The position numbers were made by a program, and so were the translations under genes. DNA of 64,000 nucleotides from an uncultured Candidatus Saccharibacteria bacterium. Lineage in GTDB: Bacteria; Patescibacteriota; Minisyncoccia; Phycocordibacterales; JACOZG01. The stretch covers positions 2,643-66,642 of the forward strand of contig CAYICB010000003.1 in NCBI GenBank assembly GCA_964361825.1, given 5' to 3'. Shown here one piece after another: positions 4,536 to 23,406 of the stretch; position 1 is the first letter of the stretch, and each line of letters begins with the position of its first letter. The notes under the pieces are model-generated. The model did no database searches. It saw nothing but the letters and a program-made list of their open reading frames with translations, and was not told the origin of the DNA.

Positions 4536-5640
4536 GGTTTTTATTTTCTACTTGATTAGGTCCAATAATATCGATATTCCAACCGGTGAGCTTGGCCGCT
4601 AGGCGGACATTTTGCCCGCCTTTACCCACCGCCAGCGAGAATTGATCGGGTTCTACTTCTACTTTTACCGTGCGATTGATGCCATCCAGAATCATGCCTT
4701 TAATTTTGGCCGGGGAGAGGGAGTTTTGGATAAAAACTTCTGGATTATCGGACCATTCCACAATATCAATTTTCTCTCCGCCGAGCTCGCTGATTACGGT
4801 ATTGACGCGCACTCCACGCTGGCCGACACAAGAACCCACCGGATCAATTTTGCGGTCTTTAGACGCCACGGCCACCTTGGTGCGGGAGCCGGCCTCTCTG
4901 GCCACCGAACGGAATTCTACCACGCCGGAAGCAATTTCTGGCGCTTCGAAGGAAAAAAGCTTTTCCACAAACTTAGGGTGAGCGCGGGAGAGTTTAAGGT
5001 TAATGCCGCGCGGCGTTTCTTCTACCGCATAGAGATAAGCCCGCAGGCGTTCGCCTTGGCGATAATGCTCACCCGGAATTTGCTCTTCGTAGGGGAGAAT
5101 CGCGGTGGTGCGGCCAAGGTCTAAGAAGACATTGCCGCGTTCCATCTTTTGCACCTTACCCGAGATCACTTCGCCTTGTTTATCGGTATATTCGCCCAGA
5201 ATCGAGGTGCGCTCGGCCTCGCGGATGCGTTGCACAATTACTTGCTTGGCGGTTTGAGCGGCAATACGGCCAAAATCGTCTTTGGTTTCAAGTGGGAAAA
5301 TAAGTTCCTCGCCCACTTGGGCCTCGCGTTTAATCTTCTTGGCATCCTCCAGCATAATATGATGCTCTTCGTCGAAGACCACGCGCTCATCGCCCTCGGC
5401 CACCTCTTCGTCTTCGGTTCTTAGCTTATTTTCATCTACCACAATCCGCACTTGGTAAAACTCGGTTTTGCCACTATCGAGATCAAACTGGGCGCGGATA
5501 ATCTGGCCGCGCTTACCAAAATCCTTTTTATAAGCGGCGGTTAAGGCATCGCCAATCGCCCCAAGGATTTTTTCCTTAGGGATACCGCGTTCTTCCTCGA
5601 GTTGCTCGAGGGCCGACTTTAATGTTTTTAAATCAATCAT
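4519..5640 (-). CDS. nusA: transcription termination/antitermination factor NusA
   Basis: N-terminal domain, S1 and two KH domains; typical NusA length. Confidence 0.9.
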   Translation of the reverse strand: MIDLKTLKSALEQLEEERGIPKEKILGAIGDALTAAYKKDFGKRGQIIRAQFDLDSGKTEFYQVRIVVDENKLRTEDEEVAEGDERVVFDEEHHIMLEDAKKIKREAQVGEELIFPLETKDDFGRIAAQTAKQVIVQRIREAERTSILGEYTDKQGEVISGKVQKMERGNVFLDLGRTTAILPYEEQIPGEHYRQGERLRAYLYAVEETPRGINLKLSRAHPKFVEKLFSFEAPEIASGVVEFRSVAREAGSRTKVAVASKDRKIDPVGSCVGQRGVRVNTVISELGGEKIDIVEWSDNPEVFIQNSLSPAKIKGMILDGINRTVKVEVEPDQFSLAVGKGGQNVRLAAKLTGWNIDIIGPNQVENKNHEPVA

Positions 5641-5677
5641 AATTTTTTAAGAAAAATGTCCGGGCGGGAAGCCGGAC
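5641..5677 (-). terminator. hairpin GTCCGG/CCGGAC followed by U-run on minus-strand RNA, between the TA pair and nusA
   Basis: perfect 6-bp stem, 8-nt loop, then A/T-rich run in the transcribed direction. Confidence 0.35.
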
Positions 5678-5738
5678 AGGACTGCTAAGCGGACACTAGT
5701 AGTCTACTATGGAAGTTATCAAGAAGCAAATTATGGTC

Positions 5739-6056
5739 TCAATCTTCAGAAAATCGTCCTTTGATGTGCTGGGCGGTATGGTAAACACGAATTAATTCGA
5801 ATCGAGTTGGGGTGTATTTGTAAAAGATAAGATAACGGAAACCCCTTAATGGATGCCACCTAACCTTTTTCAGTTTAGGTTCGTTATAGATCCACAGAGT
5901 GCCTATTTCGGGCATTGAGGCCAAGGTTTTAATCGTTTGAAAAAGAGTGTCTAAAAACCGCTGAGCGGTTTCGTTGTCGGCGTGTTTAATTAAGTAAGCT
6001 GTTTGCGAATCTATTTCTCTTTGAGCGATTGGACGGACAATGACTTCTCGATTCAC
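5739..6056 (-). CDS. type II toxin, ParE/RelE family
   Basis: ~100 aa, ParE/RelE-like C-terminal region (WHPLRGFRYLIFYKY..ELIRVYH); preceded by a small antitoxin-like gene. Confidence 0.7.
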   Translation of the reverse strand: MNREVIVRPIAQREIDSQTAYLIKHADNETAQRFLDTLFQTIKTLASMPEIGTLWIYNEPKLKKVRWHPLRGFRYLIFYKYTPTRFELIRVYHTAQHIKGRFSED

Positions 6057-6064
6057 GGTTCGAT

Positions 6065-6262
6065 TTATTTTTTTTCGAGAAGGCGATAACGATCTTTAAG
6101 CCAAGCTTTAGTCATTTTCACCGGTTTGCCACTATTAAGAGAAGCCAACAAACTATTTTCGATTTCTCGATGCAGGTGCTGTTTTAAGTCTTCCGAAACT
6201 ACTTTATTTTGCACCCAAGCTTGTGTTTCTTTTGGTAAGGATATTTTTAACGCTGTTTTCAT
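6065..6262 (-). CDS. type II antitoxin, ParD/RHH-like
   Basis: 65 aa; N-terminal KISLPKETQAWV resembles ParD ribbon-helix-helix; 9 nt upstream of the toxin gene. Confidence 0.5.
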   Translation of the reverse strand: MKTALKISLPKETQAWVQNKVVSEDLKQHLHREIENSLLASLNSGKPVKMTKAWLKDRYRLLEKK

Positions 6263-6318
6263 TGTTTTTCAGTTTAACATAATTTTAGGAGTTATCAACA
6301 ATCAAGCGCTCTTAAAAT

Positions 6319-6663
6319 TTGCTATCATTTAGCCATATGATTCGCCAAGAAGATTTGCCACCGGTCAAAACCCATCATCCGGTAATTATTACGCTGATTA
6401 TTTTAATTTTACTAGTCGTTATTGCCATTACTTTGGGCTATTTTGGTTTGTGGTCTCCGGCCGAGCCATCGGCCTCTGGCCTTACCGCCGAGCAGAAGGC
6501 GCGGATTTTAGAATCGCTCAATGCACCCGCCAATCAGCCGGAGCTTACCACCGAGCAGAAGGAACGCATTCTCAAATCGCTCAATGCGCCGGTAAACCAG
6601 CCCGAGCTCACCACCGAGCAAAAGGCCCGGATTTTAGAATCGCTTAATCGGCCAGTGAATTAA
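6319..6663 (+). CDS. membrane-anchored protein with 3 tandem 21-aa repeats (LTxEQKxRILxSLNxPxNQPE)
   Basis: N-terminal TM helix, then three near-identical in-frame repeats. Confidence 0.55.
   Translation: MLSFSHMIRQEDLPPVKTHHPVIITLIILILLVVIAITLGYFGLWSPAEPSASGLTAEQKARILESLNAPANQPELTTEQKERILKSLNAPVNQPELTTEQKARILESLNRPVN
6481..6660 (+). repeat. 63-bp tandem repeat x3 (coding)
   Basis: direct near-identical 63-nt units at 6481, 6544, 6607. Confidence 0.85.
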
Positions 6664-6692
6664 ATTAATAAATAAAAAATTAAATAAAATTT

Positions 6693-7790
6693 ATGAATAA
6701 AATTATCGATTACGCCAAAATTATTGCCCTTGCCCTTGTTTTGATGGCTGGTGTTGCCACGGTCCGTGCTTGGGATCCGCCACCCGACGACCCACCAACC
6801 TGTCCAGCCGGCACGCCGGGGTGTTTACCGCCAGTAAATGTGAGTGCGATAGATCAAACAAAACCGGCTCGCCTCACTTTGAATAGTTTAGCCGCGGTTT
6901 TTGCGAAATTGACGAATGGTAACGATAGTTATCAATTACTAAACAACTTGGTTTTGGGTGTAAATGGCAAGGTGGGAGCAGACTCATACTGCACGGCAGA
7001 TGGTGCTATTTGCACATCAGCCGCCAATCTGGGCAGTGGTCCGGATGGGGGGGTGGCCAGTTTGTCTGCTCTCAATGGTGGTGGGGTTCATTTTAACGGA
7101 GGTGGTTCTTTTGGACCATTCACTGGCGCCGTGACCACGGCACTAATCCCTTGTCCAGCAAATAAGATTTTGAAAGCGAGCGGTCCGGTGGGTTGGAGTA
7201 ATAATCCCGGGTGGACATGCGCCGATGACTTAACAACTGGAAATGTGGGTGGAGTTTCGCAATTGCTCGCCGGAGATAATATAACTCTTAGTCCTGAGGG
7301 TGGTACCGGGGTGGTAACTATCACTGCCACCGGTGGTACGGGCGGGGGGGATATTATGGGGATAAACACTGATGCCAGTGGGGGGTTAAGTGGTGGGGTT
7401 AATGCTGGGACGGCTAGCTTGAGAATCAAGGCTTGTACAGCGGGTCAAATTTTGAAATATCACAATACGGAAGATGAGCTTGGTTGGTATTGTGAAGAAG
7501 ATGAGAGTGCGAGCGTAAATGCCTCTGTCACATCCCCATATATGGCCACCGACAACACCGAGAACAATAGCCCGGTTTCTTTAACCATTGGTTCGAATCC
7601 GGAATTTTGTGCTTTAAACGAGGTTAGACTGACGCTTGAGGACGGTTCTTATATCACTGAGGACGCGCCACCAGGCAGATGCAGTGTGTATAAAAACAAT
7701 GTTGGTGAGTGGAAGGTTGAAGCAGATTTGGCTGGTGCCAACAGTAATGCATCATTGTCTTGCACGGCCCTCTGTCTTAATTTGCAATAA
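6693..7790 (+). CDS. secreted Gly/Thr-rich protein with conserved N-terminal W-PPP..TC..PGC..NVS..QTK module
   Basis: signal peptide; N-terminal module shared with the 8079 protein; Cys pairs. Confidence 0.6.
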   Translation: MNKIIDYAKIIALALVLMAGVATVRAWDPPPDDPPTCPAGTPGCLPPVNVSAIDQTKPARLTLNSLAAVFAKLTNGNDSYQLLNNLVLGVNGKVGADSYCTADGAICTSAANLGSGPDGGVASLSALNGGGVHFNGGGSFGPFTGAVTTALIPCPANKILKASGPVGWSNNPGWTCADDLTTGNVGGVSQLLAGDNITLSPEGGTGVVTITATGGTGGGDIMGINTDASGGLSGGVNAGTASLRIKACTAGQILKYHNTEDELGWYCEEDESASVNASVTSPYMATDNTENNSPVSLTIGSNPEFCALNEVRLTLEDGSYITEDAPPGRCSVYKNNVGEWKVEADLAGANSNASLSCTALCLNLQ

Positions 7791-7844
7791 TCTTGACCCC
7801 AGCAAGAGCCACCCTTCCGGAGTTTAAATGATATTATAAATATT

Positions 7845-8066
7845 ATGACCAAAGAGGATCAGTTTATTAAATTTTTTCAAGAAGCGTCGGAAGACCGTAA
7901 ACAGTATCGGCGTGATGTGGTGGCGATTCATGAGGAAAACAAAGAGAATATGAAGGTGTTGCTGGGACGCTTCGAATCAATGGAAAAAAAATGGAAACAG
8001 CACGATGAAAAACTGGACACCATTATCGAAACAGTGGGTGAAATTAAGGTGGAGTTAATTAAATAA
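7845..8066 (+). CDS. small charged hypothetical protein
   Basis: 73-aa ORF between two paralogous secreted-protein genes. Confidence 0.3.
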   Translation: MTKEDQFIKFFQEASEDRKQYRRDVVAIHEENKENMKVLLGRFESMEKKWKQHDEKLDTIIETVGEIKVELIK

Positions 8067-8078
8067 TTTTTATAAAAC

Positions 8079-10196
8079 ATGTCTCTCGAACAAAAATCTA
8101 AGCTAATCCAAACCGCCAAAACCCTCTCTCTCGCCCTCATCCTCACCCTCGGCGCCCACCTCGCCATGGCCAACTGGACCCCACCACCCAATGCTCCTAC
8201 AACTTGTGATAGCAATCCCAGTTCGCCAAATTATGAGCCGGGTTGTGCGCTACCGATTAATGTTTCGGATATCCCACAAACCAAGACGGGGTTTTTACAG
8301 GTTGGTAAATTGATTTCTAATACCAATTTAGAATTTTTTGGAGAAATAATTCCCCCCACTCCTGGAACTGGGGTTGGTGGTGCCTGTGTCGAGGGTCAAA
8401 CAATTAAAAAGAACGACGATACTGGTGAATGGGAATGTACATATCTTGCTCCAGGACTTTGGGTATTTGATGGGATAGGGAGCATTAGACCTGCTGCGAC
8501 GGTTTTTGATGAAGTTCGAGCGGTTAAATTGCGTTTTGAGGGGGAACTTTTACCAGGCGTTCCTGGTACCCCCGCTTGTAATCCTAACCAAACTATTTTT
8601 AAATACGCCCCTAATGATTGGAGGTGCACCTCATTTGCTCCCGGCTATTGGATACTTGATGGAGGTGGACCGGGGCTTACCACAGATAGCGCAAGAGATG
8701 TTAAGATGCTAAAGAATATTCTTTTGCCGAATACTGATCCGGCCGGTACGGGGGGGGTGATAAAGTTCGGCGGACAGGATTTTATTCATAATAGGGGTTC
8801 AGACCAAAGTTTACTGATCAACACTTTTATTGGTGCTGGTGCTGGTGTTGGCACCGGAGATGGTGGTTTAGGAAATGTTGGTGTGGGGACGGAGGCTTTA
8901 ACGGCCGATAATATGACTGGTTTACGTAATATTGCGATTGGTTACGCGTCTCTAAGTAGTTTGACTGGGGGGAATAATAATATTGCCATAGGTTATTCGG
9001 CCGGTGGTAATCTTGGAGCCGGAGGAATTACTGCTAGCCACAACAACATCGCGATTGGTAAAGAGTCTTTGTATCTTGGTGATGGTGGTGATGAAAATGT
9101 TTTAGTCGGCAATGATACCATGAGGGAAAACACAAATACAACATCTGATTACAATGTTGGGATAGGGCAGGCAGCGCTTAGGGTTAATGTTGCGCCCGGG
9201 TTGGTGGCGGTTGGGAAAAATGCGCTAACCTCAAATACTTCAGGCGTGGCGAATGTTGCGGTTGGTTACGGTGCTTTGGCGGCCAATATTACCTCTGCAA
9301 GTAGTACTGCGGTTGGTTATCAGGCTCTAGCTAACAGTACGGCGGGTTTAAATACTGCTATTGGTAGTCAAGCTCTCCGTTCTAATACTGCGGGTACTAG
9401 TAATACTGCTATTGGTTGGCGCGCCCTGTATGAATTAGATGGTGAAGCTTTGGATGATAAAAATACTGTTATTGGGGCCGAGGCGAGCGATTATTTTGAG
9501 GGTGATAGCAACACAATCATCGGTTTTAATGCCGTCTCTAACCCACTTTCACGTCAAGCCAGAGGTAATGGTAATGTGGTGGTGGGAGCGGTGGCTGCGC
9601 AACAATTAGGAGACAATGCTTCCGCTGGCTCTACTGCTACTAGTTACGGTAACAATAATACTATTGTGGGTCACAATGCCGGCCCCACCCTTGTTTCTGG
9701 GGATAGTAACACATTGCTTGGTAATGGCGCCGATGTTACTGCGAGTGGTGTAATAGATGCGGTTGCTCTTGGACAAGGCTCACTTGCCAACAGTACTTCG
9801 ACGGCGGTTGGTCGCAATTCTAACGCTGCTGGTTTTAATTCCGTTGTGATTGGGGCAAATGCTTTTGCCACAGGAAACAACTCTGTGGTTATTGGCACGA
9901 ACGCGGCCTCCGGTGGAAGTGATGTGTTCATTCTTGGATCATCTGCTACCAAGGTCGGCATCAGAAACACTCTTCCTATTAGTCCTTTTCAGCTCGGTTC
10001 GCCTAGTAGTGCGGGTACACCCACCTACGGTCAAATGGATGTTGAGGGTGTTGTTGGAAATTTGAGCGACTGCAATGACATGACAGAAGCCGGGCGTTTT
10101 TATCTTAGTACTAGCACCATACCAAATCGTATGTATGTTTGTGCTATGGTCACGGCTTCTACATACAATTGGAGATATTTGACTCTTTCTCCGTAA
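8079..10196 (+). CDS. large secreted fibre/beta-helix repeat protein (NxAIGxxAL-type repeats, phage tail-fibre / YadA-head-like)
   Basis: signal peptide; same N-terminal W-PPP..TC..PGC..NVS..QTK module as the 6693 protein; >15 degenerate repeats N(T/I)A(I/V)G..AL..NT.G. Confidence 0.65.
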   Translation: MSLEQKSKLIQTAKTLSLALILTLGAHLAMANWTPPPNAPTTCDSNPSSPNYEPGCALPINVSDIPQTKTGFLQVGKLISNTNLEFFGEIIPPTPGTGVGGACVEGQTIKKNDDTGEWECTYLAPGLWVFDGIGSIRPAATVFDEVRAVKLRFEGELLPGVPGTPACNPNQTIFKYAPNDWRCTSFAPGYWILDGGGPGLTTDSARDVKMLKNILLPNTDPAGTGGVIKFGGQDFIHNRGSDQSLLINTFIGAGAGVGTGDGGLGNVGVGTEALTADNMTGLRNIAIGYASLSSLTGGNNNIAIGYSAGGNLGAGGITASHNNIAIGKESLYLGDGGDENVLVGNDTMRENTNTTSDYNVGIGQAALRVNVAPGLVAVGKNALTSNTSGVANVAVGYGALAANITSASSTAVGYQALANSTAGLNTAIGSQALRSNTAGTSNTAIGWRALYELDGEALDDKNTVIGAEASDYFEGDSNTIIGFNAVSNPLSRQARGNGNVVVGAVAAQQLGDNASAGSTATSYGNNNTIVGHNAGPTLVSGDSNTLLGNGADVTASGVIDAVALGQGSLANSTSTAVGRNSNAAGFNSVVIGANAFATGNNSVVIGTNAASGGSDVFILGSSATKVGIRNTLPISPFQLGSPSSAGTPTYGQMDVEGVVGNLSDCNDMTEAGRFYLSTSTIPNRMYVCAMVTASTYNWRYLTLSP

Positions 10197-10331
10197 AGGC
10201 TTGCGGCAAGGTTTAAAGCCCAAGGCCTACTGCAAGGACTCTCCTCCCAGCCACAAAGTCCAGCAAAGGCTTGGGTTTCTCTTTGTCCACAGATGTCAAG
10301 GAAAGTCCTTGCCAAAGTTTGCTAGAATTGA
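10197..10331. repeat. REP-like imperfect palindromes upstream of the IS200-like gene
   Basis: GCAAGGACT ... AGTCCTTGC inverted repeat plus related CAAGG/CCTTG motifs. Confidence 0.35.
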
Positions 10332-11015
10332 GTGATGCAAAGAAAGGTGGCTTTTGCTCCAGACGAGTTTTATCACCTATATAATCGCGGGAATGACAAA
10401 AGGACGATTTTTCTTGATCAAAATGATCAACTGAGATTTACTCTACTCCTTTGTGTGTCCAACAAGAAACAGACCGTTCACTTGAGTGATCTCTCCAATT
10501 GGCAAGGAGAGTCCTTGACAGCAATTTGGGGCAAAGATTTTGGTGAAAGTTTGGTTGATATTGGCGCTTATTGCTTAATGCCAAACCATTTTCATCTTTT
10601 GGTGCGAGAAAAAACAGATAACGGTATTTCGTTGTTTACTAAAAAACTGCTTACGGGGTATTCGATGTATTTTAACAAGAAACATCAACGAACGGGTAAA
10701 TTATTTGAAGGACCTTTTCGTGCCGAGCGTGTTGCTGAAGATCGACACCTCAAATATTTGTTTGCTTATATTCATCTAAATCCCGTAAAAATTACTGATC
10801 CTAAAAATTGGGAGAGAAAACTTATTCCTGATCCAGAACAGGCAAGGAAATTTTTGAATACCTACCGCTTTTCAAGCCATTTGTATTATGCGGGTCAACC
10901 AAGACCAGAAGATGTAATTCTTAATCCGGTGGCTTTCTCAGAATATTTTCAAAATAAAAAAGAGTTTGGCGAGTTTATCAACGATTGGCTAACATTTGAA
11001 GCCACAGAAAATTGA
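10332..11015 (+). mobile_element. IS200/IS605-like Y1 HUH transposase homologue (RAYT-like)
   Basis: HUH motif in CLMPNHFHLLV, IS200-like fold, conserved Tyr-containing C-terminal region; 227 aa. Confidence 0.7.
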
Positions 11016-11036
11016 TCATCGTGCTATAATTTCCCC

Positions 11037-12788
11037 ATGTGGTTAGACTCGGGGAAAGTCAAACAATTTCTCGTTGACTCTGATTTGGTTAGTGCCAAAG
11101 ATTTTACTGAAGCGGAGGCGGAGGCGAGTCAGGACAATAAATCATTGGAGGAGGTTTTGCTCAATTCCGGCAAAGTCTCGGAAGAAGATTTCCGTCGAAT
11201 GAAGGCTTATTTGCTCGGCATTCCGTATATTAGTTTGTCTAAGCTCAAGGTTGACAAAGAAATTTTGTTTTTGGTGCCCGAGCCAATTGCTCGCAAGCAT
11301 AATATTGTGGCTTTCGCGAGAAGTGATAAGGGTCTAGAGGTGGCGATGCTTGATCCGGAGGATCTCCAAGCGATTGAGTTTATTAAAAAAGGGGTGGGGC
11401 TCAAGATTTTGCCTCGGCTAACCGATACCGAGTCAATAAAAACCATTCTCTTGCAGTATCAGAAGAGTTTGAAGGCCGAGTTTGGCGATATTATTAAAAC
11501 CGAGGCAGGTAAAATTGGGTTAGTGCCCGAAGAAGCGGGCAAAGAGGTGGGTGAGGGTGAGCTTAAGAAATTAGCCGAAGATTTGCCGGTGGTGCGAATT
11601 GTCGACACCTTGCTCTCGCATGCGATCACCCAAAAGGCCTCTGATATCCATATTGAGCCCTTCGAAACCGAGGTGGTGGTGCGTTATCGGATTGATGGCG
11701 TTTTGCACGATGCAATGATTTTACCCAAGAATGCTGGTTCGGGCATTACGGCGCGGATCAAAATTTTGGCCAATTTGCGCTTGGACGAGAAGCGTTTGCC
11801 CCAAGATGGCCGGTTTAAGATTGAAGCGGCGGGGAATAAGGTGTCTTTTCGCGTTTCGATTTTGCCGACCTATTTTGGGGAGAAAATTGTGATGCGTTTA
11901 CTCCCTGATTCTTCGCGCGGACTTACCCTAGAGCAAGCGGGCTTCCACGGTTTAGGTTTGGAGCGAGTGCATGAGGCAATGCGGGGCACGGTGGGGATGA
12001 TTTTGGTCACTGGCCCTACCGGTTCGGGTAAAAGCACCACACTCTACACTATGATGGATATTCTTAATACGCCGGATGTAAATATTTCGACCATTGAGGA
12101 TCCAATTGAGTATCAGATGCCGCGGATCAATCAAACGCAGGTAAAACCAGATATTGGCCTCACTTTTGCTGCCGGCTTGCGCTCGCTGGTGCGCCAAGAC
12201 CCCGATATTATTATGGTCGGTGAGATTCGTGATAAAGAAACGGTGACGCTGGCCATCAATGCCGCGCTCACTGGCCACTTGGTACTCTCTACCCTCCACA
12301 CCAATTCGGCCGCCGGCACGATTCCGCGTTTGCTAGATATGGGAGCCGAAAGCTTCCTCATTATTTCTACGGCTAAGTTGATTGTGGGTCAGCGCTTGGT
12401 GCGTAAATTATGGCCGAGCAAAGAGGCTTACACCCTTTCGGAAGCTGAGCTTAAGAGTTTGGCGGCTAAGGTGGATCTTGATCGGATGCTTGAGCTTTTG
12501 CGGGCGGAAAGGGTGGTGAAGGAGAAGGCGAATTGGAAAGATATTCCTTTTTACCGCGCGAAGTCGGTGCCCGATTGCCTAGAGGGTTTCCAAGGTCGAG
12601 TGGGAATCCATGAGGTGCTGATGATGTCGTCCTCACTTAAAGAGTTGGTGATTGCCGGAGCTACCGCCGAGAAAATTGAGGCTCAAGCCAAAAAGGAAGG
12701 GATGATTACCATGCTCGAAGACGGCGTGTTTAAGGCGGTGAGTGGCGTGACCACCCTAGAGGAGGTGCTCCGCGTGGTTTCGGAGTAA
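11037..12788 (+). CDS. pilB: type IV pilus assembly ATPase PilB / GspE family
   Basis: GSPII_E N-terminal domains, Walker A GPTGSGKSTTLY, Asp/His boxes. Confidence 0.9.
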   Translation: MWLDSGKVKQFLVDSDLVSAKDFTEAEAEASQDNKSLEEVLLNSGKVSEEDFRRMKAYLLGIPYISLSKLKVDKEILFLVPEPIARKHNIVAFARSDKGLEVAMLDPEDLQAIEFIKKGVGLKILPRLTDTESIKTILLQYQKSLKAEFGDIIKTEAGKIGLVPEEAGKEVGEGELKKLAEDLPVVRIVDTLLSHAITQKASDIHIEPFETEVVVRYRIDGVLHDAMILPKNAGSGITARIKILANLRLDEKRLPQDGRFKIEAAGNKVSFRVSILPTYFGEKIVMRLLPDSSRGLTLEQAGFHGLGLERVHEAMRGTVGMILVTGPTGSGKSTTLYTMMDILNTPDVNISTIEDPIEYQMPRINQTQVKPDIGLTFAAGLRSLVRQDPDIIMVGEIRDKETVTLAINAALTGHLVLSTLHTNSAAGTIPRLLDMGAESFLIISTAKLIVGQRLVRKLWPSKEAYTLSEAELKSLAAKVDLDRMLELLRAERVVKEKANWKDIPFYRAKSVPDCLEGFQGRVGIHEVLMMSSSLKELVIAGATAEKIEAQAKKEGMITMLEDGVFKAVSGVTTLEEVLRVVSE

Positions 12789-12797
12789 AATTAAATT

Positions 12798-14003
12798 ATG
12801 CGCTTTCGTTATCGAGGCAAAACAGCAAACGGTGAGGAGACTGAAGGCTTGCGCGATGCCAAAGACAAGTTTGAATTATCGCGCGAGATGCGGAATCAGG
12901 GCATTACTTTAGTTTCGGCCGAGCTCGTGGTAGAGGAGAAGGGGTGGTTCAACCTCAATTTTTCTGGTCGGGTAAAAATGAAGGATAAGATTGTGTTTGC
13001 TTCTTCACTCGCCTCCATGATTTCGGCGGGGCTCTCGCTCGCGCGAGCGCTCAATGTAATTGAGCGGCAAACTAAAGCTAAGGGTTTTAAAGAAATTATC
13101 AAAACGCTGGAAGAAAAGATCAAAAATGGCGAGAGCTTTAGCGCGGCGCTGGCCACTTTTCCTAAAGTTTTTCCGCCGGTATTTGTGGCCATGACCTCGG
13201 CGGGTGAAGAATCGGGTAAATTGCCGGCGGCGCTCCAAACGGTGGGGGAGCAAATGGCCAAGAGTTATGAATTGCGGCGCAAGGTAAAAGGCGCAATGAT
13301 TTATCCAGCAATTATTATTGTGGTGATTATTATTATCGCCATTTTGATGATGATCTTTCTGGTGCCCAATATCACCTCGCTCTTTAAGGAGATGAATGTG
13401 GAATTACCACTCTCCACGCGCGTGGTGATTTTTACCAGCGACCTTATTAGCGGCCACCCGATTTTATTTTTTGCTGGTTTGCTGGCGCTGGTTTCGGGGT
13501 TTGTGTCGCTGACACGAAGTAATTTTGGCCATCAGCTAATCTCGCGGGCGGTGTTGCGCCTACCCCTGTTTAAAGTGATTGCAAAACAAATGAATTCGGC
13601 GATGACCATGCGCACCTTATCTTCTTTGCTCTCGGCGGGCGTGGGAATGGTTGAAGCCATCAATATTACTGGGAAAGTGGTGCAGAATCCGGTATATCAA
13701 AAAGCGTTGACGGAAGCGGCGGCGGCTATTTCTAAGGGCGAAGTGTTGTCGAACATTTTTAAGGCCAAAGAAGATATTTATCCGGTGTTGGTGGGAGAAA
13801 TGGCCGAGGTGGGCGAGGAAACCGGTAATTTAACCGGCATGTTGGAAAAAGGCGCCACGCTTTATGAGGAGGAGGTTAATCAAGCTACTAAAAATCTCTC
13901 CACCATTATTGAGCCCGTGCTCATGATTATTATTGGGATTGCGGTGGGCTTTTTTGCTGTTTCGATGATGGGGCCAATTTACTCTTTGAGTAATCAAATC
14001 TAA
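12798..14003 (+). CDS. pilC: type IV pilus platform protein PilC / GspF family
   Basis: two GspF repeats, polytopic membrane protein. Confidence 0.85.
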   Translation: MRFRYRGKTANGEETEGLRDAKDKFELSREMRNQGITLVSAELVVEEKGWFNLNFSGRVKMKDKIVFASSLASMISAGLSLARALNVIERQTKAKGFKEIIKTLEEKIKNGESFSAALATFPKVFPPVFVAMTSAGEESGKLPAALQTVGEQMAKSYELRRKVKGAMIYPAIIIVVIIIIAILMMIFLVPNITSLFKEMNVELPLSTRVVIFTSDLISGHPILFFAGLLALVSGFVSLTRSNFGHQLISRAVLRLPLFKVIAKQMNSAMTMRTLSSLLSAGVGMVEAINITGKVVQNPVYQKALTEAAAAISKGEVLSNIFKAKEDIYPVLVGEMAEVGEETGNLTGMLEKGATLYEEEVNQATKNLSTIIEPVLMIIIGIAVGFFAVSMMGPIYSLSNQI

Positions 14004-15824
14004 ATGAAAGCAAAAGGCAAAAGGCAAAAGGCAAAAGTGGCGGGGGGGTTCACCCTGGTCGAAACTTTGGTGGGCGTCTTTTTATTTTCGATGTTGGCGC
14101 TCGCGATTTATCAGGGGTATTTGGCGGTGTTGGCGCTCTCGCGCTCGGCGCAATATAAGAGTTTGGCTACTTTGGTGGCTAATGACCAAATTGAATGGAT
14201 TAGAAATGTCGAGTATGAGGATGTGGGTATTTTAAACGGTTTGCCGGCGGGAGTAATTCCGCGCGAGGCTACCAAAACGGTTAGCAATATCACCTTTGAT
14301 CTCACTACCACGATTCGCAATATCGATGACCCCTTCGATGGGACGATTGGTGGTAGTCCCAACGATCTTTCTCCGGCTGATAATAAATTGGTTGAAGTGG
14401 AGGTGGGGTGTAGCACTTGCCCCAATTTTTCTCCGGTGATTATTACGACCACGGTGGCGCCAAAAAATCTGGAGACTACCTCGGGGAACGGGGCGCTTTT
14501 TGTGCAAGTGTTGGATGCCAGTGGCTTGCCAATCACCGAGGCGGAAGTAACGGTAGAAAATGCTTCGGCGATACCGCCCCTTACTATTCAAGATGAAACC
14601 AATAATTCGGGCATGTTGCAATTGGTGGATGTGCCACCCGGCGACTTGGTTTATGAAGTTACCGCCACCAAAGACGGTTATTCCGTAGCGCAAACTTATG
14701 CCATTGATCCCGCCACCAACCCTAACCCGATTCCGCCCCATGCCACGGTGGTGGCGGGTCAAGTAACGCAACTTAGTTTGGCGATTGATCGAGTGAGCGA
14801 GTTTGAGATTGGCACCAAAACCAGTACTTGCAGTGCGGTGCCAAGCGTGACCTTCAACCTTCGGGGTAATAAATTAATTGGCACTTTGCCCGATATTTTT
14901 AAGTTTAGTCAAAATTACACCAGCGATAGTGGCGGGAAGAAAACGGTGGGTGATTTGGAGTGGGATACTTATAATTTTACTTTAACTGGTGGCACTTATG
15001 ATTTAGCGGGGACGATCCCGCTTTTGCCTATCGCTCTCACCCCCGACACTACTCAAGAGGTGTCTCTGGTTTTGCGCGCCAAGGACCCCAAGGCCTTGAT
15101 GGTGACGGTAAAGGATGCGGTGACGGGTTTGCCACTATCAGATGCTTCGGTGCATCTCACCGGCAGCGGGGTTGATGAAACCGAGGTAACCAATCGCGGT
15201 TTTTTCCGTCAGACTGATTGGTCCGGGGGCGAAGGGCAGGATGTTTTTACCGTCAATAATCGTTTTTTTGCCACGGATGGCAATATTGATTTTGACACCC
15301 AGGTGGGAGACCTTAAGTTAAAAAATATTTTGGGTACTTATGTGGTGGATGGCTATTTAGAATCTTCAGCCTTCGATACTGGCGGCAATCAAGCGACTTA
15401 TTACAATTTAAGTTGGAGCCCGGGCACTCAACCGGTAGAAACTGGCGCCGACAGCATTAAGTTTCAGGTGGCCGCCTCTAGTTCACCCGCTGGACCTTGG
15501 GATTATACTGGACCAGATGGCACGGCGAGCACCTTCTATACCGCGAGCGACACCAATATCTCCAATGTGGTTTATAATCAACGCTATCTGCGTTATAAGG
15601 TTTTTTTGAGTACCACTGACCCCCTGTTTACCCCAACGATTTCTGATGTCGCGATTACTTATGGCACGGAGTGTTTACCTTATGGCCAAGTCCTGTTTAA
15701 TAATTTAACGGCCAATAGTTACAATTTAGATATTACGAAAACCGGCTATCAAGCTTATAGTGATAATGCCGTGAGCACCGCCGCCGAGTGGCAAAATTGG
15801 GAAGCCTCGTTACAACCAAATTAA
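14004..15824 (+). CDS. large prepilin-type protein (pseudopilin, 606 aa)
   Basis: N-terminal class III signal GFTLVETLV plus hydrophobic helix. Confidence 0.75.
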   Translation: MKAKGKRQKAKVAGGFTLVETLVGVFLFSMLALAIYQGYLAVLALSRSAQYKSLATLVANDQIEWIRNVEYEDVGILNGLPAGVIPREATKTVSNITFDLTTTIRNIDDPFDGTIGGSPNDLSPADNKLVEVEVGCSTCPNFSPVIITTTVAPKNLETTSGNGALFVQVLDASGLPITEAEVTVENASAIPPLTIQDETNNSGMLQLVDVPPGDLVYEVTATKDGYSVAQTYAIDPATNPNPIPPHATVVAGQVTQLSLAIDRVSEFEIGTKTSTCSAVPSVTFNLRGNKLIGTLPDIFKFSQNYTSDSGGKKTVGDLEWDTYNFTLTGGTYDLAGTIPLLPIALTPDTTQEVSLVLRAKDPKALMVTVKDAVTGLPLSDASVHLTGSGVDETEVTNRGFFRQTDWSGGEGQDVFTVNNRFFATDGNIDFDTQVGDLKLKNILGTYVVDGYLESSAFDTGGNQATYYNLSWSPGTQPVETGADSIKFQVAASSSPAGPWDYTGPDGTASTFYTASDTNISNVVYNQRYLRYKVFLSTTDPLFTPTISDVAITYGTECLPYGQVLFNNLTANSYNLDITKTGYQAYSDNAVSTAAEWQNWEASLQPN

Positions 15825-15825
15825 T

Positions 15826-16416
15826 ATGCATCAAAAAACCCAAGGTTTTGGCTTGCTTGAGTTGCTCGTTAGTTTGAGTATTTTTGTGGGTATTTTGTGG
15901 TTGCTGGGCAATTTTCAGGTCAATGTTTTTTCGCAAAATAATTTTATCGGCAGTGGTTTAAACGCCGAATTCGAGACCCGCACTTCGCTCAAAAAGTTGA
16001 TTGCCGAATTGCGCGCCGCCGTCATCTCCGACACCGGCACTTACCCCATTGCTTTGGCCACGGGGTCAGCGCTCACTTTCTATAGTGATCGGGATGGTGA
16101 TGGCTTAGTGGAGCAAATCCGTTTTTATGTTTCGGGAAATAAAATTTATAAAGGCGTCATTAAACCCACCGGAGCGCCTTTGAGTTACGTGGCGGGAAAT
16201 GAGAAAATTACTACGGAAGTAAATTTTATTACCAATCCCACGACCGTGTTCACTTATTTTGATGCGAATACGGCGCAATTAAATGAGCCGATCAATTTAC
16301 CCGAGGTGCGCTTGATTAAAATTACTTATACTGTGGACGAGAACGCTAGCCGCCCACCCGCTCCGCTAACGCTAAGCGCTCAAGTGAGTGTGCGGAGTCT
16401 TAAATTTCAACAATGA
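15826..16416 (+). CDS. prepilin-type minor pilin
   Basis: N-terminal GFGLLELLVSLSIFV cleavage/methylation motif. Confidence 0.7.
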   Translation: MHQKTQGFGLLELLVSLSIFVGILWLLGNFQVNVFSQNNFIGSGLNAEFETRTSLKKLIAELRAAVISDTGTYPIALATGSALTFYSDRDGDGLVEQIRFYVSGNKIYKGVIKPTGAPLSYVAGNEKITTEVNFITNPTTVFTYFDANTAQLNEPINLPEVRLIKITYTVDENASRPPAPLTLSAQVSVRSLKFQQ

Positions 16417-17882
16417 AGAATTTACGCGGCTATATTGTAATTCAGGCTTTAGTCTTTGGTGGCATTGGCGTGTTGCTAATTGGCGCCTTGGCTGGTTGGG
16501 CGAAGGTGAGTATTGTGGGTGCGCGCCAATTAACCGACCGCGAGCGCGCCTTCCAGATTGCCGAAGCGGGGATTGAGTATTATCGCTGGCACTTAGCTCA
16601 TGCCGCCACCGATTATCAAGATGGCACTGGTGGTTCGGGGCCATACCTGCATGATTATGAAGATAAGAATGGCGAGGTGGTGGGTAGTTTTACGCTCACC
16701 ATTACCCCGCCGCCCATTGGTTCTACGGTGGTGACGGTTTTATCGGAGGGGCGAGTCTTGAGTAATCCCGCCGCGGTGCGCAAGATTGAGGCTAAACTCG
16801 CGATTCCCTCCATTGCTAAGTATGCTTTTGTGGCCAATTCGGTAATGCGTTTTGGTTCGGGAACAGAAGTTTTTGGACCCATTCATTCTAATGATGGCAT
16901 TCGTTTTGATGGCTTGGTGCATAATTTAGTCACAAGTGCCAAGAGTGATTATGATGATCCGGATCATACTGGCAACAATGAGTTTGCGGTGCACACGCAT
17001 GTGACCGCGCCGCCCGGCTCGGGAGTTAATGACAGCTTTCGTTCTCAAGAGGCCCCACCCACCAGTCCGGTGCCCACGCGCAATGATGTGTTTTTGGCGG
17101 GTCGGCAGTTCCCGGTGCCGGCGGTGGATTTTGTGGGTTTTACCAATGATATGGCGACGATGAAGACTGATGCTCAAACCGGCGGCTTTTATCGGGGCGC
17201 TTCCGGCGGCAATGGTTATCGAGTGGTTTTGCGTACTGATGACACCTTCGATCTCTATCGAGTCAATAGTTTGCGCAATCCCCCGAGCGGCTGCAGTGCT
17301 TCTAGTCAAACGGGTTGGGGTACTTGGAGTATTGGCACTAGTGGCAGTTCGCAAACCAATTTGGGCCGGCAAAGTTTGCCGGCCAACGGCCTAATTTTTC
17401 TCGAGGATCATGTGTGGGTGGAGGGTCAGATTGATAGCGCGCGAGTAACCATTGCCTCGGCGCGTTTCCCCGAGAATCCTTCTACTTATACTAGTATCAC
17501 GGTTAATGAGGATCTCAAGTATACCAATTATGATGGCCAAGATGTGTTGGCGCTAATCGCCCAAAACAATATCAATATCGGTTTGTTTAGTGATAATAAT
17601 TTACAAATTGACGCCGCCTTAGTGGCCAAAAATGGCCGAGTGGGCAGGTATTATTATGAAAGTGATTGTCGTTTGAGTGGGACCAATTGGTATATTAGAA
17701 GCACGATTACTTTGTTTGGGATGATTGGCACCAATTTGCGTTACGGTTTTGCTTATACTGATGGCACTGGTTATCAAACGCGCAATATCAATTACGATGC
17801 CAACCTTCTCTACGGCCCACCGCCCTCCTTCCCTCTGACCTCCGATCAATACTCCACCATCTCCTGGCGCGAAGTGCCTTAG
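16413..17882 (+). CDS. pilus-associated protein (PilX-like, N-terminal TM anchor)
   Basis: N-terminal hydrophobic helix; translationally coupled to the upstream minor pilin. Confidence 0.45.
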   Translation: MKNLRGYIVIQALVFGGIGVLLIGALAGWAKVSIVGARQLTDRERAFQIAEAGIEYYRWHLAHAATDYQDGTGGSGPYLHDYEDKNGEVVGSFTLTITPPPIGSTVVTVLSEGRVLSNPAAVRKIEAKLAIPSIAKYAFVANSVMRFGSGTEVFGPIHSNDGIRFDGLVHNLVTSAKSDYDDPDHTGNNEFAVHTHVTAPPGSGVNDSFRSQEAPPTSPVPTRNDVFLAGRQFPVPAVDFVGFTNDMATMKTDAQTGGFYRGASGGNGYRVVLRTDDTFDLYRVNSLRNPPSGCSASSQTGWGTWSIGTSGSSQTNLGRQSLPANGLIFLEDHVWVEGQIDSARVTIASARFPENPSTYTSITVNEDLKYTNYDGQDVLALIAQNNINIGLFSDNNLQIDAALVAKNGRVGRYYYESDCRLSGTNWYIRSTITLFGMIGTNLRYGFAYTDGTGYQTRNINYDANLLYGPPPSFPLTSDQYSTISWREVP

Positions 17883-17890
17883 CTTAAACT

Positions 17891-18676
17891 TTGTTTCCGG
17901 TATGCTATACTCTCGGCGTGAAAATAGTGGTGGCCAATTGGAAGATGAATCCGCTCGCGCCAAGCGAAGCAAAGAAGCTTTTTGCGGGGGTCAAGAAGGC
18001 CACGGCTAAACTTAAGCGAACCAAAGTGGTGGTGTGCCCGCCGGCGGTTTTTTTACCTTTCTTTGCGGAGGCGAAAGGCGGGTTATCTCTGGGGGCCCAA
18101 GATGTTTTTACTGAAAAAGTTGGGGCTTATACCGGCGCGCTCTCGGCCGAGATGCTTGGTTATGTTGGGGCGAAGTACGCCCTTATCGGTCATTCAGAAG
18201 TGAGAGCAAGGGGCGATAATAATGAGGTGGTGAACAAGAAGGTCAAAGCGGCTTTGCGTGCCGGCCTTAAAGTAATTCTGTGCGTGGGCGAACTAGTGCG
18301 CGATGAGTCTGGGGAATATTTAGATTTTTTGAGATTAGAACTGGAGTCGGCGCTTACTGGTTTGCCACGACGATTGTTTAGTCAGATTATTGTGGCCTAT
18401 GAGCCTGTGTGGGCGATTGGTAAGAGTGCCGCCGAGTCAGCGACGCCGGCCGATTTTCTCGAGAAGAAACTTTTTTTGCGTAAGCTCTTGGTGGGACTTG
18501 CGGGCAAACCAGAGGCCGCGGCGGTGCCAATTCTCTATGGTGGTTCGGTGGAAGAGAAAAACGCCCTTGATTTTTTGCAAGCGGGAGAAGCGGACGGTCT
18601 CTTGGTGGGCCATACCTCTTTGCGGGCCGATAAATTTAGCGAGTTATTAACTATTGTTGACCATGGACGGAATTAA
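17891..18676 (+). CDS. tpiA: triosephosphate isomerase
   Basis: NWKMN, IGHSE, CVGE motifs. Confidence 0.9.
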   Translation: MFPVCYTLGVKIVVANWKMNPLAPSEAKKLFAGVKKATAKLKRTKVVVCPPAVFLPFFAEAKGGLSLGAQDVFTEKVGAYTGALSAEMLGYVGAKYALIGHSEVRARGDNNEVVNKKVKAALRAGLKVILCVGELVRDESGEYLDFLRLELESALTGLPRRLFSQIIVAYEPVWAIGKSAAESATPADFLEKKLFLRKLLVGLAGKPEAAAVPILYGGSVEEKNALDFLQAGEADGLLVGHTSLRADKFSELLTIVDHGRN

Positions 18677-19784
18677 ATTAGCCAGTGATTTAACGGCGGC
18701 TGATTTGCGAGGGAAAAAGGTTTTGGTTAGAGTGGATCTTAATTTGCCTTTGCAAGACGGAGAAGTGAGTGATGACTTTCGTTTCCAGAAAACTTTACCC
18801 CTGCTTCAGTTTTTGCTCAAGCAGGAGGCAAAGATCATTTTGCTTAGCCACCTTGGTGGCGCGGCGGGCTCGCTTTTGCCCGTTTCGCGCTGGTTGCAAA
18901 AGTTTTTACCCCATGTTTTTGTGGAAAGTTTTGATGCGGTGGCGGTGGAGCGGGGGCTCGCCGAAAAGCCGGTGGTTTTGCTAGAGAATTTGCGGCGTGA
19001 TCGCGGAGAAGAAAATAATCTATCCGAATTTGCTGAACGCTTGGCTAAATTTGGCGATTTGTATATTAATGAAGCGTTTTCTGTTTCCCACCGCGCACAT
19101 GCCTCGGTGGCGGCTTTACCCAAACTCTTACCTCATTATGTGGGACCACGGTTTAAACAAGAGTATGAGCAATTATCAAAGGCTTTTACGCCCGAGCACC
19201 CCTTCATTTTTATTTTAGGCGGCGCCAAGTTTACCACCAAGGTGCCGGTGCTTAAGAAGTTTATGTATTTAGCCGATCAAATTTTTATCCACGGGGCTTT
19301 GGCCAACGCTTTTTTTAAGGAGTTGGGTTATCAAACGGGGACATCGCTAGTAGATGAGCAAAGTGACCTAGCTCGACAATTTTTAAAGTTTGAGAAAATT
19401 ATTTTGCCCGTTGATGTGCGCGTGCGCCGAGGGACCGAAGTGAGTATCAAGAAACCAGATGAGCTTAATAAAGAGGATGAGATTATTGATGTGGGCGTGG
19501 ATTCGCTTGAGCAATTGGGCGAGGCGGTGGCCACGGCCAAGTTTGTGTTATGGAATGGTCCGGTGGGCCGCTTTGAGTTTGGTTTTAAGGGCGGCACCGA
19601 TGCAGTGGCCAAGATGGTGGCCGAAGCCGAAGCCTATTCTATTATCGGTGGCGGTGATACTTTAGCGGCGATTCGTGATCTCAACTTATTAGACAAATTT
19701 GATTTTATCTCTACGGCCGGTGGCGCGATGCTCGACTTTCTCGCCGAAGGCACCCTCCCCGGAATTGAAGCGTTGAAGGCTTAA
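18654..19784 (+). CDS. pgk: phosphoglycerate kinase
   Basis: PGK N- and C-domain motifs (RVDLNLP, GGGD, AGG). Confidence 0.9.
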   Translation: MLTMDGIKLASDLTAADLRGKKVLVRVDLNLPLQDGEVSDDFRFQKTLPLLQFLLKQEAKIILLSHLGGAAGSLLPVSRWLQKFLPHVFVESFDAVAVERGLAEKPVVLLENLRRDRGEENNLSEFAERLAKFGDLYINEAFSVSHRAHASVAALPKLLPHYVGPRFKQEYEQLSKAFTPEHPFIFILGGAKFTTKVPVLKKFMYLADQIFIHGALANAFFKELGYQTGTSLVDEQSDLARQFLKFEKIILPVDVRVRRGTEVSIKKPDELNKEDEIIDVGVDSLEQLGEAVATAKFVLWNGPVGRFEFGFKGGTDAVAKMVAEAEAYSIIGGGDTLAAIRDLNLLDKFDFISTAGGAMLDFLAEGTLPGIEALKA

Positions 19785-22446: not shown

Positions 22447-23406
22447 ATGATAAGAGATTTTGATCGGTGGAATAAACGGAAAAAAGAAATTCAAACAGCC
22501 CTTCCAAAAGGAAACTTTTTCTATAAAGAAGGTGAAATTTGGTGGTGTGGACTTGGTGTGAATCTTGGAGTGGAAACGGACGGGAAGCATGATAACTTCG
22601 AGCGACCGGTTTTAATTATTAAAGTTTTTAATCGAGAGATGGTTTGGGTTTTGCCAGTGACTAGTGTTTTTCACCAAGCGCCATTTTATTACAAGTTTGA
22701 TCATGGTGGAGAGGATCAGTGGGTGGTCTTATCTCAAATTAGAACAGTAAGTACAAAAAGATTGTTTAGGAAAATCAGGGTATTAGACGAAACTGATTTT
22801 GAAAAAATTAAAGTTTTAGTAATTGATTACCTTAAAAAACGAAACCCCGCCGTGAGGCGGGGAATCTCGGAGCCCGAAGGCAATAATGGTTCTAGTCTAA
22901 TCGATGAGAAAGAGCTTGTCAAGCCGGTTATCCCCAATCAGCCTAAAATTATTCTCTATACCGATGGTGGTTCGCGGGGGAATCCGGGTATCGCTGGGGC
23001 CGGAGCCGTGATTACTGATGAGGCGGGGAAAGTGATCAAAGAAGCGTCGAAGCCGCTTGGGATTACGACCAATAATGAGGCTGAGTATCAAGGGGTAATC
23101 TTGGGTCTCGAGACAACTAAGAAACATTTTGGCCCGTCTATGGGCCGGGCAAGTAAAGAGAAAATTCGCGATTTAGACATTACGCTCAAGCTCGATAGTG
23201 AACTGGTGGCCAAGCAATTGCGGGGCGAATATCAGATTAAAGAAGATAATCTTGGTAAACTCTTCCTCAAAATTTGGAATGCCCGCGTCGCCGACTTCCC
23301 TAAGCTCACCATTACCCATATCCCGCGCGAACAAAACTCCGCCGCCGATTGCCTCGCCAACGAAGCGATGGATGCCCAAGAAAAAGCCCCAAAACCCTTA
23401 TTTTAA
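22447..23406 (+). CDS. fusion protein: N-terminal MazF/PemK-fold domain + C-terminal RNase HI domain
   Basis: N-terminus GEIWWCGLGVNLGVETDG..RPVLII...LSQIRTVSTKRL matches MazF/PemK; C-terminus ILYTDGGSRGNPG..TNNEAEY..D is RNase H. Confidence 0.75.
   Translation: MIRDFDRWNKRKKEIQTALPKGNFFYKEGEIWWCGLGVNLGVETDGKHDNFERPVLIIKVFNREMVWVLPVTSVFHQAPFYYKFDHGGEDQWVVLSQIRTVSTKRLFRKIRVLDETDFEKIKVLVIDYLKKRNPAVRRGISEPEGNNGSSLIDEKELVKPVIPNQPKIILYTDGGSRGNPGIAGAGAVITDEAGKVIKEASKPLGITTNNEAEYQGVILGLETTKKHFGPSMGRASKEKIRDLDITLKLDSELVAKQLRGEYQIKEDNLGKLFLKIWNARVADFPKLTITHIPREQNSAADCLANEAMDAQEKAPKPLF

Follow-up and report, generated by a model that had tools for sequence, protein, structure and literature searches.

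An unannotated Patescibacteria family of exported, tail-fibre-related proteins with a constant N-terminal module, recurrently encoded beside type IV pilus genes

How Patescibacteria (the candidate phyla radiation, CPR) find and hold their hosts is largely obscure outside a few cultured Saccharibacteria, in which type IV pili and unnamed adhesins are essential (PMC10633639). The question is raised by two genes, P1 and P2, that lie ahead of a type IV pilus operon on the + strand of a 64-kb window, the whole stretch of 64,000 nucleotides analysed from an uncultured Candidatus Saccharibacteria bacterium: what kind of proteins do they encode, and are these displayed on the pilus? Here, we report that both belong to a large, unannotated Patescibacteria family of exported proteins, in which a constant module opens the mature chain and hypervariable, tail-fibre-related parts follow. 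Genes carrying the module are enriched beside type IV pilus genes and beside the gene of a small membrane protein. The two window genes are local representatives of a family-wide architecture that is more general than first assumed, the initial annotation having described the module as a feature of two paralogues.

Both open reading frames (ORFs) are present where they had been placed, and their parts are these:

6693-7790, + strand: P1, a 365-residue secreted protein with 12 Cys, made up of signal peptide, N-module and tail-fibre-like segments
6768-6881, + strand: N-module of P1, residues 26-63, AWDPPPDDPPTCPAGTPGCLPPVNVSAIDQTKPARLTL, with the loop C-x6-C
7152-7220, + strand: first Cys-bracketed hairpin motif of P1, residues 154-176
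7434-7493, + strand: second Cys-bracketed hairpin motif of P1, residues 248-267, CTAGQILKYHNTEDELGWYC
8079-10196, + strand: P2, a 705-residue secreted fibre protein with 8 Cys
8172-8309, + strand: N-module of P2, residues 32-77, with the longer loop C-x12-C
8385-8627, + strand: two Cys-bracketed hairpin motifs of P2, residues 103-120 and 167-183, modelled as beta-hairpins with a predicted local distance difference test score (pLDDT) of ~70
8820-9938, + strand: about 20 degenerate repeats of P2, NxA(I/V)G-x2-AL-x2-NT-x-G, with a period of 17 and then 14
9939-10193, + strand: C-terminal region of P2, residues 621-705, with one Cys pair, the presumed distal tip

The N-termini of P1 and P2 share 31/71 identities (44%) at E=3e-12 in pairwise BLASTP, which found no significant segment elsewhere (next best E 0.45), and a six-frame scan of the window confined the N-terminal motif to these two ORFs. 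Its second half, PGC-x-(L/P)-P-(V/I)-NVS-x-I-x-QTK, is as first described, while the first half had been written one residue short and reads W-(D/T)-PPP-x-x-P-(P/T)-T-C. A hairpin motif, C-x2-(G/N)Q-x-(I/L)-K-x5-12-W-x-C, occurs in two copies in each protein. Since this motif and the N-module of ~40-50 residues are the only parts in common, P1 and P2 are mosaics and not full-length paralogues, and the term 'paralogous' was an overstatement. The proposal that both are secreted is upheld by sequence and by family statistics: each N-terminus has the look of a Sec signal peptide, in which a basic n-region leads into ~18 hydrophobic residues and a cleavage site, VRA↓W or AMA↓NW. That they might be pilins was considered and rejected, as the class III signal peptide motif G-(F/Y)-(T/S)-L-x-E was not found and ordinary Sec signal peptides stand in its place. 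Neither protein matched N_methyl or IV_pilin and a scan for prepilin motifs was empty for both, whereas the pseudopilin ORFs of the neighbouring operon (14004-15824 and 15826-16416) do match.

The N-module is unannotated, as had been supposed: Pfam, NCBIfam, PHROGs and PDB have no matching entry. It is far from private to this locus, however. HMMER, run exhaustively over 1.84 billion representative proteins with a profile of the two window modules only, retrieved 180 protein clusters at E<=1e-3. Independent members score up to 59 bits (E=4e-11); the scores of P1 (90.9 bits) and P2 (126.6 bits) are circular, the profile having been built from both. In 144 of the 148 new matches listed the module stands at about residues 25-80, and 85 members give the consensus x-W-T-x-P-x3-P-P-T-C-P-x-G-x-P-G-C-D-A-P-I-N-V-S-x3-Q-x-K-x-G-x-L, in which the two Cys, a Pro and the Gln never vary and W, G, N, K, G and L hardly do; P1 and P2 have all of these columns. 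The family pattern is a Sec-type signal peptide, one or two residues, and then W-x-x-P-x3-PP...C-x6-12-C...P-(I/L/V)-N-(V/I)-(S/G)-x3-Q-x-K-x-G-x-L, which both window proteins fit. When 141 members were anchored on the Trp, Ala was found at -2 in 90/141 (64%) and Ala or Val at -4 in 57%, after a basic n-region (net charge +2) and a hydrophobic core of ~18 residues. As we read these sequences, this is an A-x-A site of the usual signal peptidase I kind, cleavage at which would put the Trp first or second in the mature protein. The number of Cys is even in 141/148 members, which fits disulfide formation outside the cytoplasm, and the family proteins are probably disulfide-bonded; Patescibacteria/CPR genomes are enriched in MdbA-like oxidoreductases and VKOR (PMC6744442).

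A Vogelbacteria genome (L007) has two tandem fibre genes ahead of pilB, and the first of them (8768-9856) carries a variant of the module without Cys, W-T-A-P-x3-PP-S-G-N-T-L-P-P-I-N-V-G-x3-Q-x-K-x-G-x-L (...TWTAPLLAPPSGNTLPPINVGPVQQEKVGPL...). By this comparison the Cys loop looks like an insertion, and the Cys-biased profile probably understates the breadth of the family. Orthology of P1 to the 362-residue first gene of this locus was rejected, there being no support past the N-terminus. With one genome per species (GTDB) scanned for the exact word PGCDAPIN, 37 loci were confirmed, and metagenomes scanned with the same word gave 61 more. The genome loci are mostly titled Patescibacteria (Vogel-, Nomura-, Nealson-, Wildermuth- and Falkowbacteria, Paceibacterota, 'Saccharibacteria'), with two 'Gammaproteobacteria' and a few named 'bacterium' only. 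No module match was confirmed in 2.9 million viral contigs, and literature searches returned no account of the N-module or of pilus-linked fibre genes in Patescibacteria.

What follows the module is highly variable. Members at syntenic positions in different genomes range from 168 to 693 residues and have the module alone in common. Most of the 139 full-length members scanned contain no Pfam domain; the remainder carry Gly_rich_2, Peptidase_S74 (S74, in 5/139), Flg_new_2, YadA_head, Collagen, Shufflon_N, Gp34_trimer, PRD1 P5 C, H_lectin or Fibrinogen_C, and one member (L012) has a long collagen G-x-y run. PHROG matches reach 3e-34 for tail fibre (P0123) and 2.5e-21 for tail collar fibre (L008), and never extend over the N-module. 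The motif G(K/Q)(V/I)LT(S/A)D-x-x-G-x-x-x-W occurs in 42/148 members, eight of which have it in the Cys-bracketed form of P1 and P2. Conservation of the module alone, together with the lack of a confirmed match in the viral contigs, points to cellular exported proteins with a constant N-terminus, the distal part of which is drawn from the phage tail-fibre toolbox.

In P2 this relationship is plain. More than 15 repeats reminiscent of tail fibres and YadA heads had been noted, and both count and likeness stood up: ~20 units were counted over residues 248-620, with a modal period of 17 residues and of 14 near the C-terminal end, and they match the PHROG tail spike phrog_4636 (4e-31), the head of the trimeric autotransporter BpaC (7o23, 3e-7) and, just short of the cut-off, Pfam YadA_head (PF05658; residues 583-609, 24.6 bits against 25). 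The repeats are degenerate and exist at the protein level only, as Tandem Repeats Finder detected no DNA tandem repeat there. In a large protein database the repeat region has >3100 homologues, mostly Bacteroidota proteins that carry the S74 chaperone domain (PF13884) and go by the names 'tail fiber domain-containing' or 'trimeric autotransporter adhesin'; none of the 119 best carries the N-module. In two distant homologues, P0034 and P0099, the repeats are joined to a prepilin N-terminus (PF07963) and to S74 (PF13884); from their sequences both look like true pilins bearing tail-fibre-like repeats in other bacteria. The P2 repeats are consistent with a beta-solenoid shaft, and the 85 residues that follow them have no known domain in Pfam, PHROG or PDB searches. 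Over 649 residues P2 shows 100% identity with NCBI MEK7504689.1 ('hypothetical protein, partial, Patescibacteria group bacterium'). The genome of the window was itself assembled from Hainich groundwater, and near-identical contigs come from the samples Hain_H43 and Hain_H51. For P1, sequence searches gave no Pfam, NCBIfam, PHROG or PDB match, and a word-indexed search of 5.8 billion proteins returned a near-identical copy and one 27-residue tail-fibre motif match only.

An architecture of this kind is known from Bdellovibrio bacteriovorus, where all 21 members of the mosaic adhesive trimer (MAT) fibres carry a conserved domain directly after the signal peptide, followed by tail-fibre-like trimeric shafts and swappable tips, with S74 in a subset (PMC10769870). 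On the authors' assumption this domain binds an element of the cell surface that they could not name; they also raise a possible interplay with type IV pili (PMC10769870). The family described here resembles the MATs in its signal peptide, family-wide N-terminal region, phage-tail-fibre-like shafts, variable C-terminal tips and S74 in a subset, and in the many paralogues of a bacterium that must recognise other bacteria. In contrast, the MAT N-domain is beta-rich with ~130 residues, whereas the module has ~40, is Pro-rich with one disulfide loop and shows no predicted secondary structure (the N-domains being compared by description only); MATs belong to a diderm predator and not to Patescibacteria, and their trimer structure is solved, while here it is proposed. 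Being much smaller and apparently unrelated, the module is unlikely to be a MAT N-terminal domain, and the family is rather an analogous, independently built variant. The P2 repeat region also appears homologous to trimeric autotransporter adhesins (YadA, BpaC) and to Bacteroidota tail fiber domain-containing proteins. Here too P2 differs, as the Pfam scan found no C-terminal YadA-type membrane anchor or coiled-coil stalk (no YadA_anchor or YadA_stalk match at E<=0.1), and the window organism presumably has no outer membrane (PMC6744442). With phage tail fibres and spikes P2 shares homology of the shaft (phrog_4636), and both window proteins differ from these by an export signal and non-phage neighbours.

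We consider it likely that P1 and P2 are members of a large family of cell-surface fibre adhesins, so far observed in Patescibacteria only, in which the constant N-terminal module serves for anchoring in a manner analogous to the MATs. Exported by Sec, the proteins would have their Cys pairs oxidised outside the cytoplasm and would assemble into fibres, probably trimers. The constant N-module would tie the fibre, at its cell-proximal end, to a conserved cell-surface component, and the variable distal parts would bind the surfaces of partner or host cells. The family reads as mosaic fibre adhesins of bacteria living on other bacteria, and its members are good candidates for attachment of these bacteria to host cells.

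The genomic setting bears on what such fibres might be fixed to. Around P1 and P2 the window holds the following features:

6319-6663, + strand: small ORF of 114 residues with a basic N-terminus, one transmembrane helix and then three 21-residue repeats
7845-8066, + strand: charged, coiled-coil-like ORF of 73 residues between P1 and P2, gene-called in two near-identical contigs
10332-11015, + strand: IS200/RAYT-like Y1 transposase ORF of 227 residues, between P2 and pilB
11037-12788, + strand: pilB (T2SSE and MshEN, E=8e-122)
12798-14003, + strand: pilC (T2SSF, E=2e-58)
14004-15824, + strand: pseudopilin of 606 residues with a CarboxypepD_reg domain and a prepilin N-methylation motif
15826-16416, + strand: pseudopilin of 196 residues with a prepilin N-methylation motif
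16413-17882, + strand: ORF of 489 residues with an N-terminal hydrophobic segment

The + strand run (6319-19784) closes with the triosephosphate isomerase and phosphoglycerate kinase genes after the pilus genes, and NusA, pyrophosphatase, trigger factor, ClpP and RNase Y are encoded on the opposite strand upstream of the fibre genes. The domains bear out the original naming of the pilB-pilC-pseudopilin block. The fibre genes had been placed immediately upstream of it, and they are indeed close (P2 ends at 10196 and pilB starts at 11037), but the transposase ORF lies between. This ORF matches Y1_Tnp at 2.7e-7 and REP_Tyr_transpos at 1.6e-10 (41 bits, under the cut-off of 80). Related loci have no transposase at this position and the module gene there is 55-111 bp from pilB; the ORF is inserted and lies outside the fibre system. 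Comparison with the ORF at the same position in L007 showed no homology. A 35%-identical relative of the transposase occurs near trigger factor in L095 and L096. Whether the 73-residue ORF is part of the fibre system is uncertain. A promoter and terminator scan of 5600-11200 stayed at chance level and was uninformative on co-transcription. The pilus gene order of the window is kept in L007, L051 and L052, and L022 has the same pilus genes with the minor-pilin genes on the opposite strand. Two toxin genes were observed in passing. Between NusA and the fibre cassette (5739-6262, - strand) lies a ParE-type toxin (PF05016, 4.7e-9) with a putative antitoxin of 65 residues, and at 22447-23406 (+ strand) a 319-residue ORF joins a PemK/MazF toxin domain (1.2e-13) to RNase H/RVT_3 (1e-19), an unusual fusion.

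Among relatives, the linkage of module genes to pilus genes is real and recurrent, but partial. A PilB-family ATPase is encoded in 14/37 genome loci and in 8/24 metagenome loci of >=6 kb. When loci with any ORF in common at >=70% identity were joined, giving 19 lineage groups with a locus of >=8 kb, the ATPase was present in 5/19, and the remaining 14/19 had no pilus ATPase within ~10 kb. Against an assumed background the 5/19 corresponds to p=2e-4 at 3%, 0.004 at 6% and 0.035 at 10%, the range of 3-10% being an estimate from genome size and the number of such ATPases. The co-occurrence of the module with type IV pilus loci is seen as enrichment, with most lineage groups unlinked. Neither outcome named beforehand as refuting the observation came about: the N-terminal similarity is significant, and the homologues are not consistently apart from pilus genes.

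Three pilus-linked arrangements recur. In the first, a NusA block is followed by the small transmembrane ORF (not always present), the module gene, pilB, pilC, minor pilins, triosephosphate isomerase and phosphoglycerate kinase, and in at least seven genomes (L003, L008, L009, L012, L014, L020 and others) the module gene, on the same strand as pilB, stops 55-111 bp before it; the window has this arrangement with the transposase-like ORF inserted. In the second, the module gene stands at the downstream end of a pilT-pilC-pilin-pilD-minor-pilin operon (L029, L075), and in the third it precedes a different, solitary PilB-like ATPase by 0.5-1.8 kb (L011, L034, L062/63, L083). Also common is a fourth arrangement, trigger factor - ClpP - module gene, which has no nearby pilus genes (L010, L027, L035, L038 and the context of P0123), although one locus of this type (L089) has pilB 6 kb further on. 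In L024 (10606-14763) and L031 (11125-15257) the NusA...triosephosphate isomerase-phosphoglycerate kinase neighbourhood is kept with the module gene in place, but the pilB-pilC-pilin block is missing, and its place is taken by two large secreted proteins together with a small ORF with transmembrane helix and repeats. Part of the pilus adjacency is inherited synteny with the NusA/trigger factor/ClpP block.

The small ORF at 6319-6663 ends 30 bp before P1. Its repeats, LTxEQKxRILxSLNxPxNQPE (LTAEQKARILESLNAPANQPE, three times), are encoded by a 63-bp tandem repeat of 2.7 copies at 6481-6648, and the protein has no Pfam match. Comparable ORFs of 70-180 residues lie 7-55 bp upstream of module genes, on the same strand, at pilus-linked and unlinked loci alike. 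They share a design of basic residues, one transmembrane helix and usually three repeats L-(T/S)-x-E-(E/Q)-K-x-x-I-(I/L)-x-x-(L/M)-N, and were located at:

L003, 9550-9867
L005, 2244-2645
L011, 3792-4130
L013, 9451-9852
L028, 9565-9900
L029, 9620-9874
L032, 2416-2853
L033, 9319-9858
L034, 9425-9901
L037, 9422-9814

Counted by a fixed rule, such an ORF precedes 23/65 module genes and 28/496 other genes of >=150 residues in the same loci (odds ratio 9, Fisher p=1e-10), and it occurs in 10/19 lineage groups, which makes it commoner than the pilus ATPase. The repeat part of the window ORF is similar to five others at E 3e-7 to 2e-3 (phmmer, 2084 ORFs). The small ORF is a candidate membrane partner or anchor of the fibre proteins. 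Secreted proteins with the repeated motif (G/Y)(W/A)WS-x-N-I-G-W-I-x-F-N, a region without Pfam match, also recur beside module genes, some of them with PKD domains:

L003, 7229-9538
L017, 827-1480
L020, 8510-9874
L024, 12657-14717
L029, 11365-12624
L031, 13157-15214
L033, 8010-9353
L089, 13214-14662

Together with the small transmembrane ORF and the fibre gene, these proteins form a surface-protein island beside the pilus operon.

Several observations weigh against the fibre-adhesin reading. Structure prediction gave a divided result. On the one hand, the P2 model is confident at residues 370-450 (pLDDT 81-94), where short strands recur at 17-residue intervals as they would in a solenoid, and both of its Cys-bracketed motifs fold as hairpins. 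On the other hand, the full-length P2 model, from an alignment of module and repeat homologues, has a mean pLDDT of only 53.5, with the C-terminal region at low confidence, and the N-module alone (AlphaFold monomer, 85-sequence alignment) is an extended chain without secondary structure at pLDDT 81 and a predicted template modelling score (pTM) of 0.23. Foldseek of the P2 model against the PDB gave no match (best E=1.9), and neither P1 nor the module profile had a sequence match there. Such poor monomer models would be expected of obligate oligomeric fibres, which is an interpretation and not evidence. Domain scans found no S74, collagen or other recognised trimerisation domain in P1 or P2, and no recognisable domain of any kind in P1; trimerisation and anchoring are putative. 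The neighbour statistics come from 98 loci fetched by one exact word, a biased sample of the family. Finally, small ORFs of the type upstream of P1 also precede trigger factor and other secreted proteins; they are not exclusive to module genes and may be general rather than specific partners.

What holds the fibres may be sought in either of the two recurrent neighbours. The fibres could stand on the cell body, held by the upstream small membrane protein, whose extracellular repeats, about three in number, would take one N-module each from a trimeric fibre; linkage to pili would then reflect co-regulation or shared synteny only. This we regard as possible, if tentative. Basic residues before the helix, as read from the sequences, are consistent with an N-in/C-out topology, and three repeats are found in the window and in L003, L005, L011, L028 and L032. 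The ORF stands ahead of module genes at pilus-linked and unlinked loci, is ninefold enriched there and occurs in more lineage groups than the pilus ATPase. The repeat count varies, however (two in L022, four in L033), 9/19 lineage groups have no such ORF, similar ORFs stand before unrelated genes, and the iterative search may have been inflated by transmembrane helix or composition, with five matches significant on the repeat region alone. The adhesins might instead be borne by the pilus, the free N-module docking after Sec export on the minor-pilin complex at the type IV pilus tip, so that pilus extension and retraction would carry the fibre outward and pull it back. CofJ and TcpF dock through their mature N-terminus, the position at which the module starts. 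Docking of secreted proteins on type IVb pilus tips is reported for CofJ/CofB and TcpF/TcpB (PMC6048534, PMC9565799, PMC10120004). As in the present case, CofJ and TcpF are Sec-exported non-pilins whose genes belong to or adjoin a type IV pilus operon, with a functional element at the mature N-terminus. They differ, so far as description allows them to be likened, in being globular released proteins of type IVb pili in enteric diderms, whereas here the proteins are fibre-like and belong to a large family with most members away from pilus genes. Streptococcus sanguinis PilB, one of the modular type IV pilins, likewise combines an adhesive module with a type IV pilus in a monoderm-type envelope, but is a true pilin with a class III signal peptide, unlike P1 and P2 (PMC8179133).

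The placement of module genes ahead of pilB, at the end of a pilus operon (L029, L075) and, in a third clade, upstream of a different PilB-like ATPase (L011, L034, L062, L083) speaks for carriage by the pilus, as do the lineage-collapsed enrichment over the few per cent expected and the P2-type repeats on a prepilin N-terminus in P0034 and P0099. We nevertheless find this analogy-based proposal doubtful. Most lineage groups lack a nearby pilus ATPase, L024 and L031 keep the module gene where the pilus genes are gone, the adjacency is in part inherited with its block, and at the 10% background the enrichment reaches only p=0.035. Furthermore, the module is equally conserved with minor-pilin sets that are unrelated by BLAST (L006, L009, L014 and L020 as against the window, L007 and L022), which makes a specific minor-pilin receptor unlikely. 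As the small membrane protein is the commonest neighbour and pilus genes come second, the pattern suggests that the fibres act with pili in attachment, whether or not they are seated on them. The initial annotation had proposed adhesins or fibres shown on or with the pilus; the adhesin reading is reasonable and pilus genes are enriched, and display of P1 and P2 on the pilus is unproven. It appears unlikely that the N-module is a universal 'plug' that mounts interchangeable phage-derived receptor-binding fibres on one socket, be it the pilus tip or the small three-repeat membrane protein. By far the least probable account, which we rejected, takes P1 and P2 for tail-fibre genes of a remnant or active prophage or tailocin. 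The strong PHROG tail-fibre and tail-spike matches of the distal parts would suit it, but these matches leave out the N-module, P1 and P2 have Sec signal peptides, no viral module match was confirmed, and the neighbours are housekeeping and pilus genes in a synteny conserved across orders, with no phage structural or lysis genes.

If the plug proposal were true, the host range of an episymbiont would be set by tip swaps behind a constant adaptor, like the tail-fibre swaps of phages, and with a retractile pilus as the socket this would constitute a new pilus-borne system of exchangeable adhesins in a monoderm-type envelope. For the fibre-adhesin family itself, a short tag at the mature N-terminus makes it practical to list, for any Patescibacteria genome, proteins that are candidates for host recognition. 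The diversity of tips can then be set against host range, and there are two concrete candidate partners, the pilus and the small repeat protein. The family extends to Patescibacteria the idea established with the Bdellovibrio MATs, that bacteria living on bacteria reuse phage tail-fibre parts for cell recognition.

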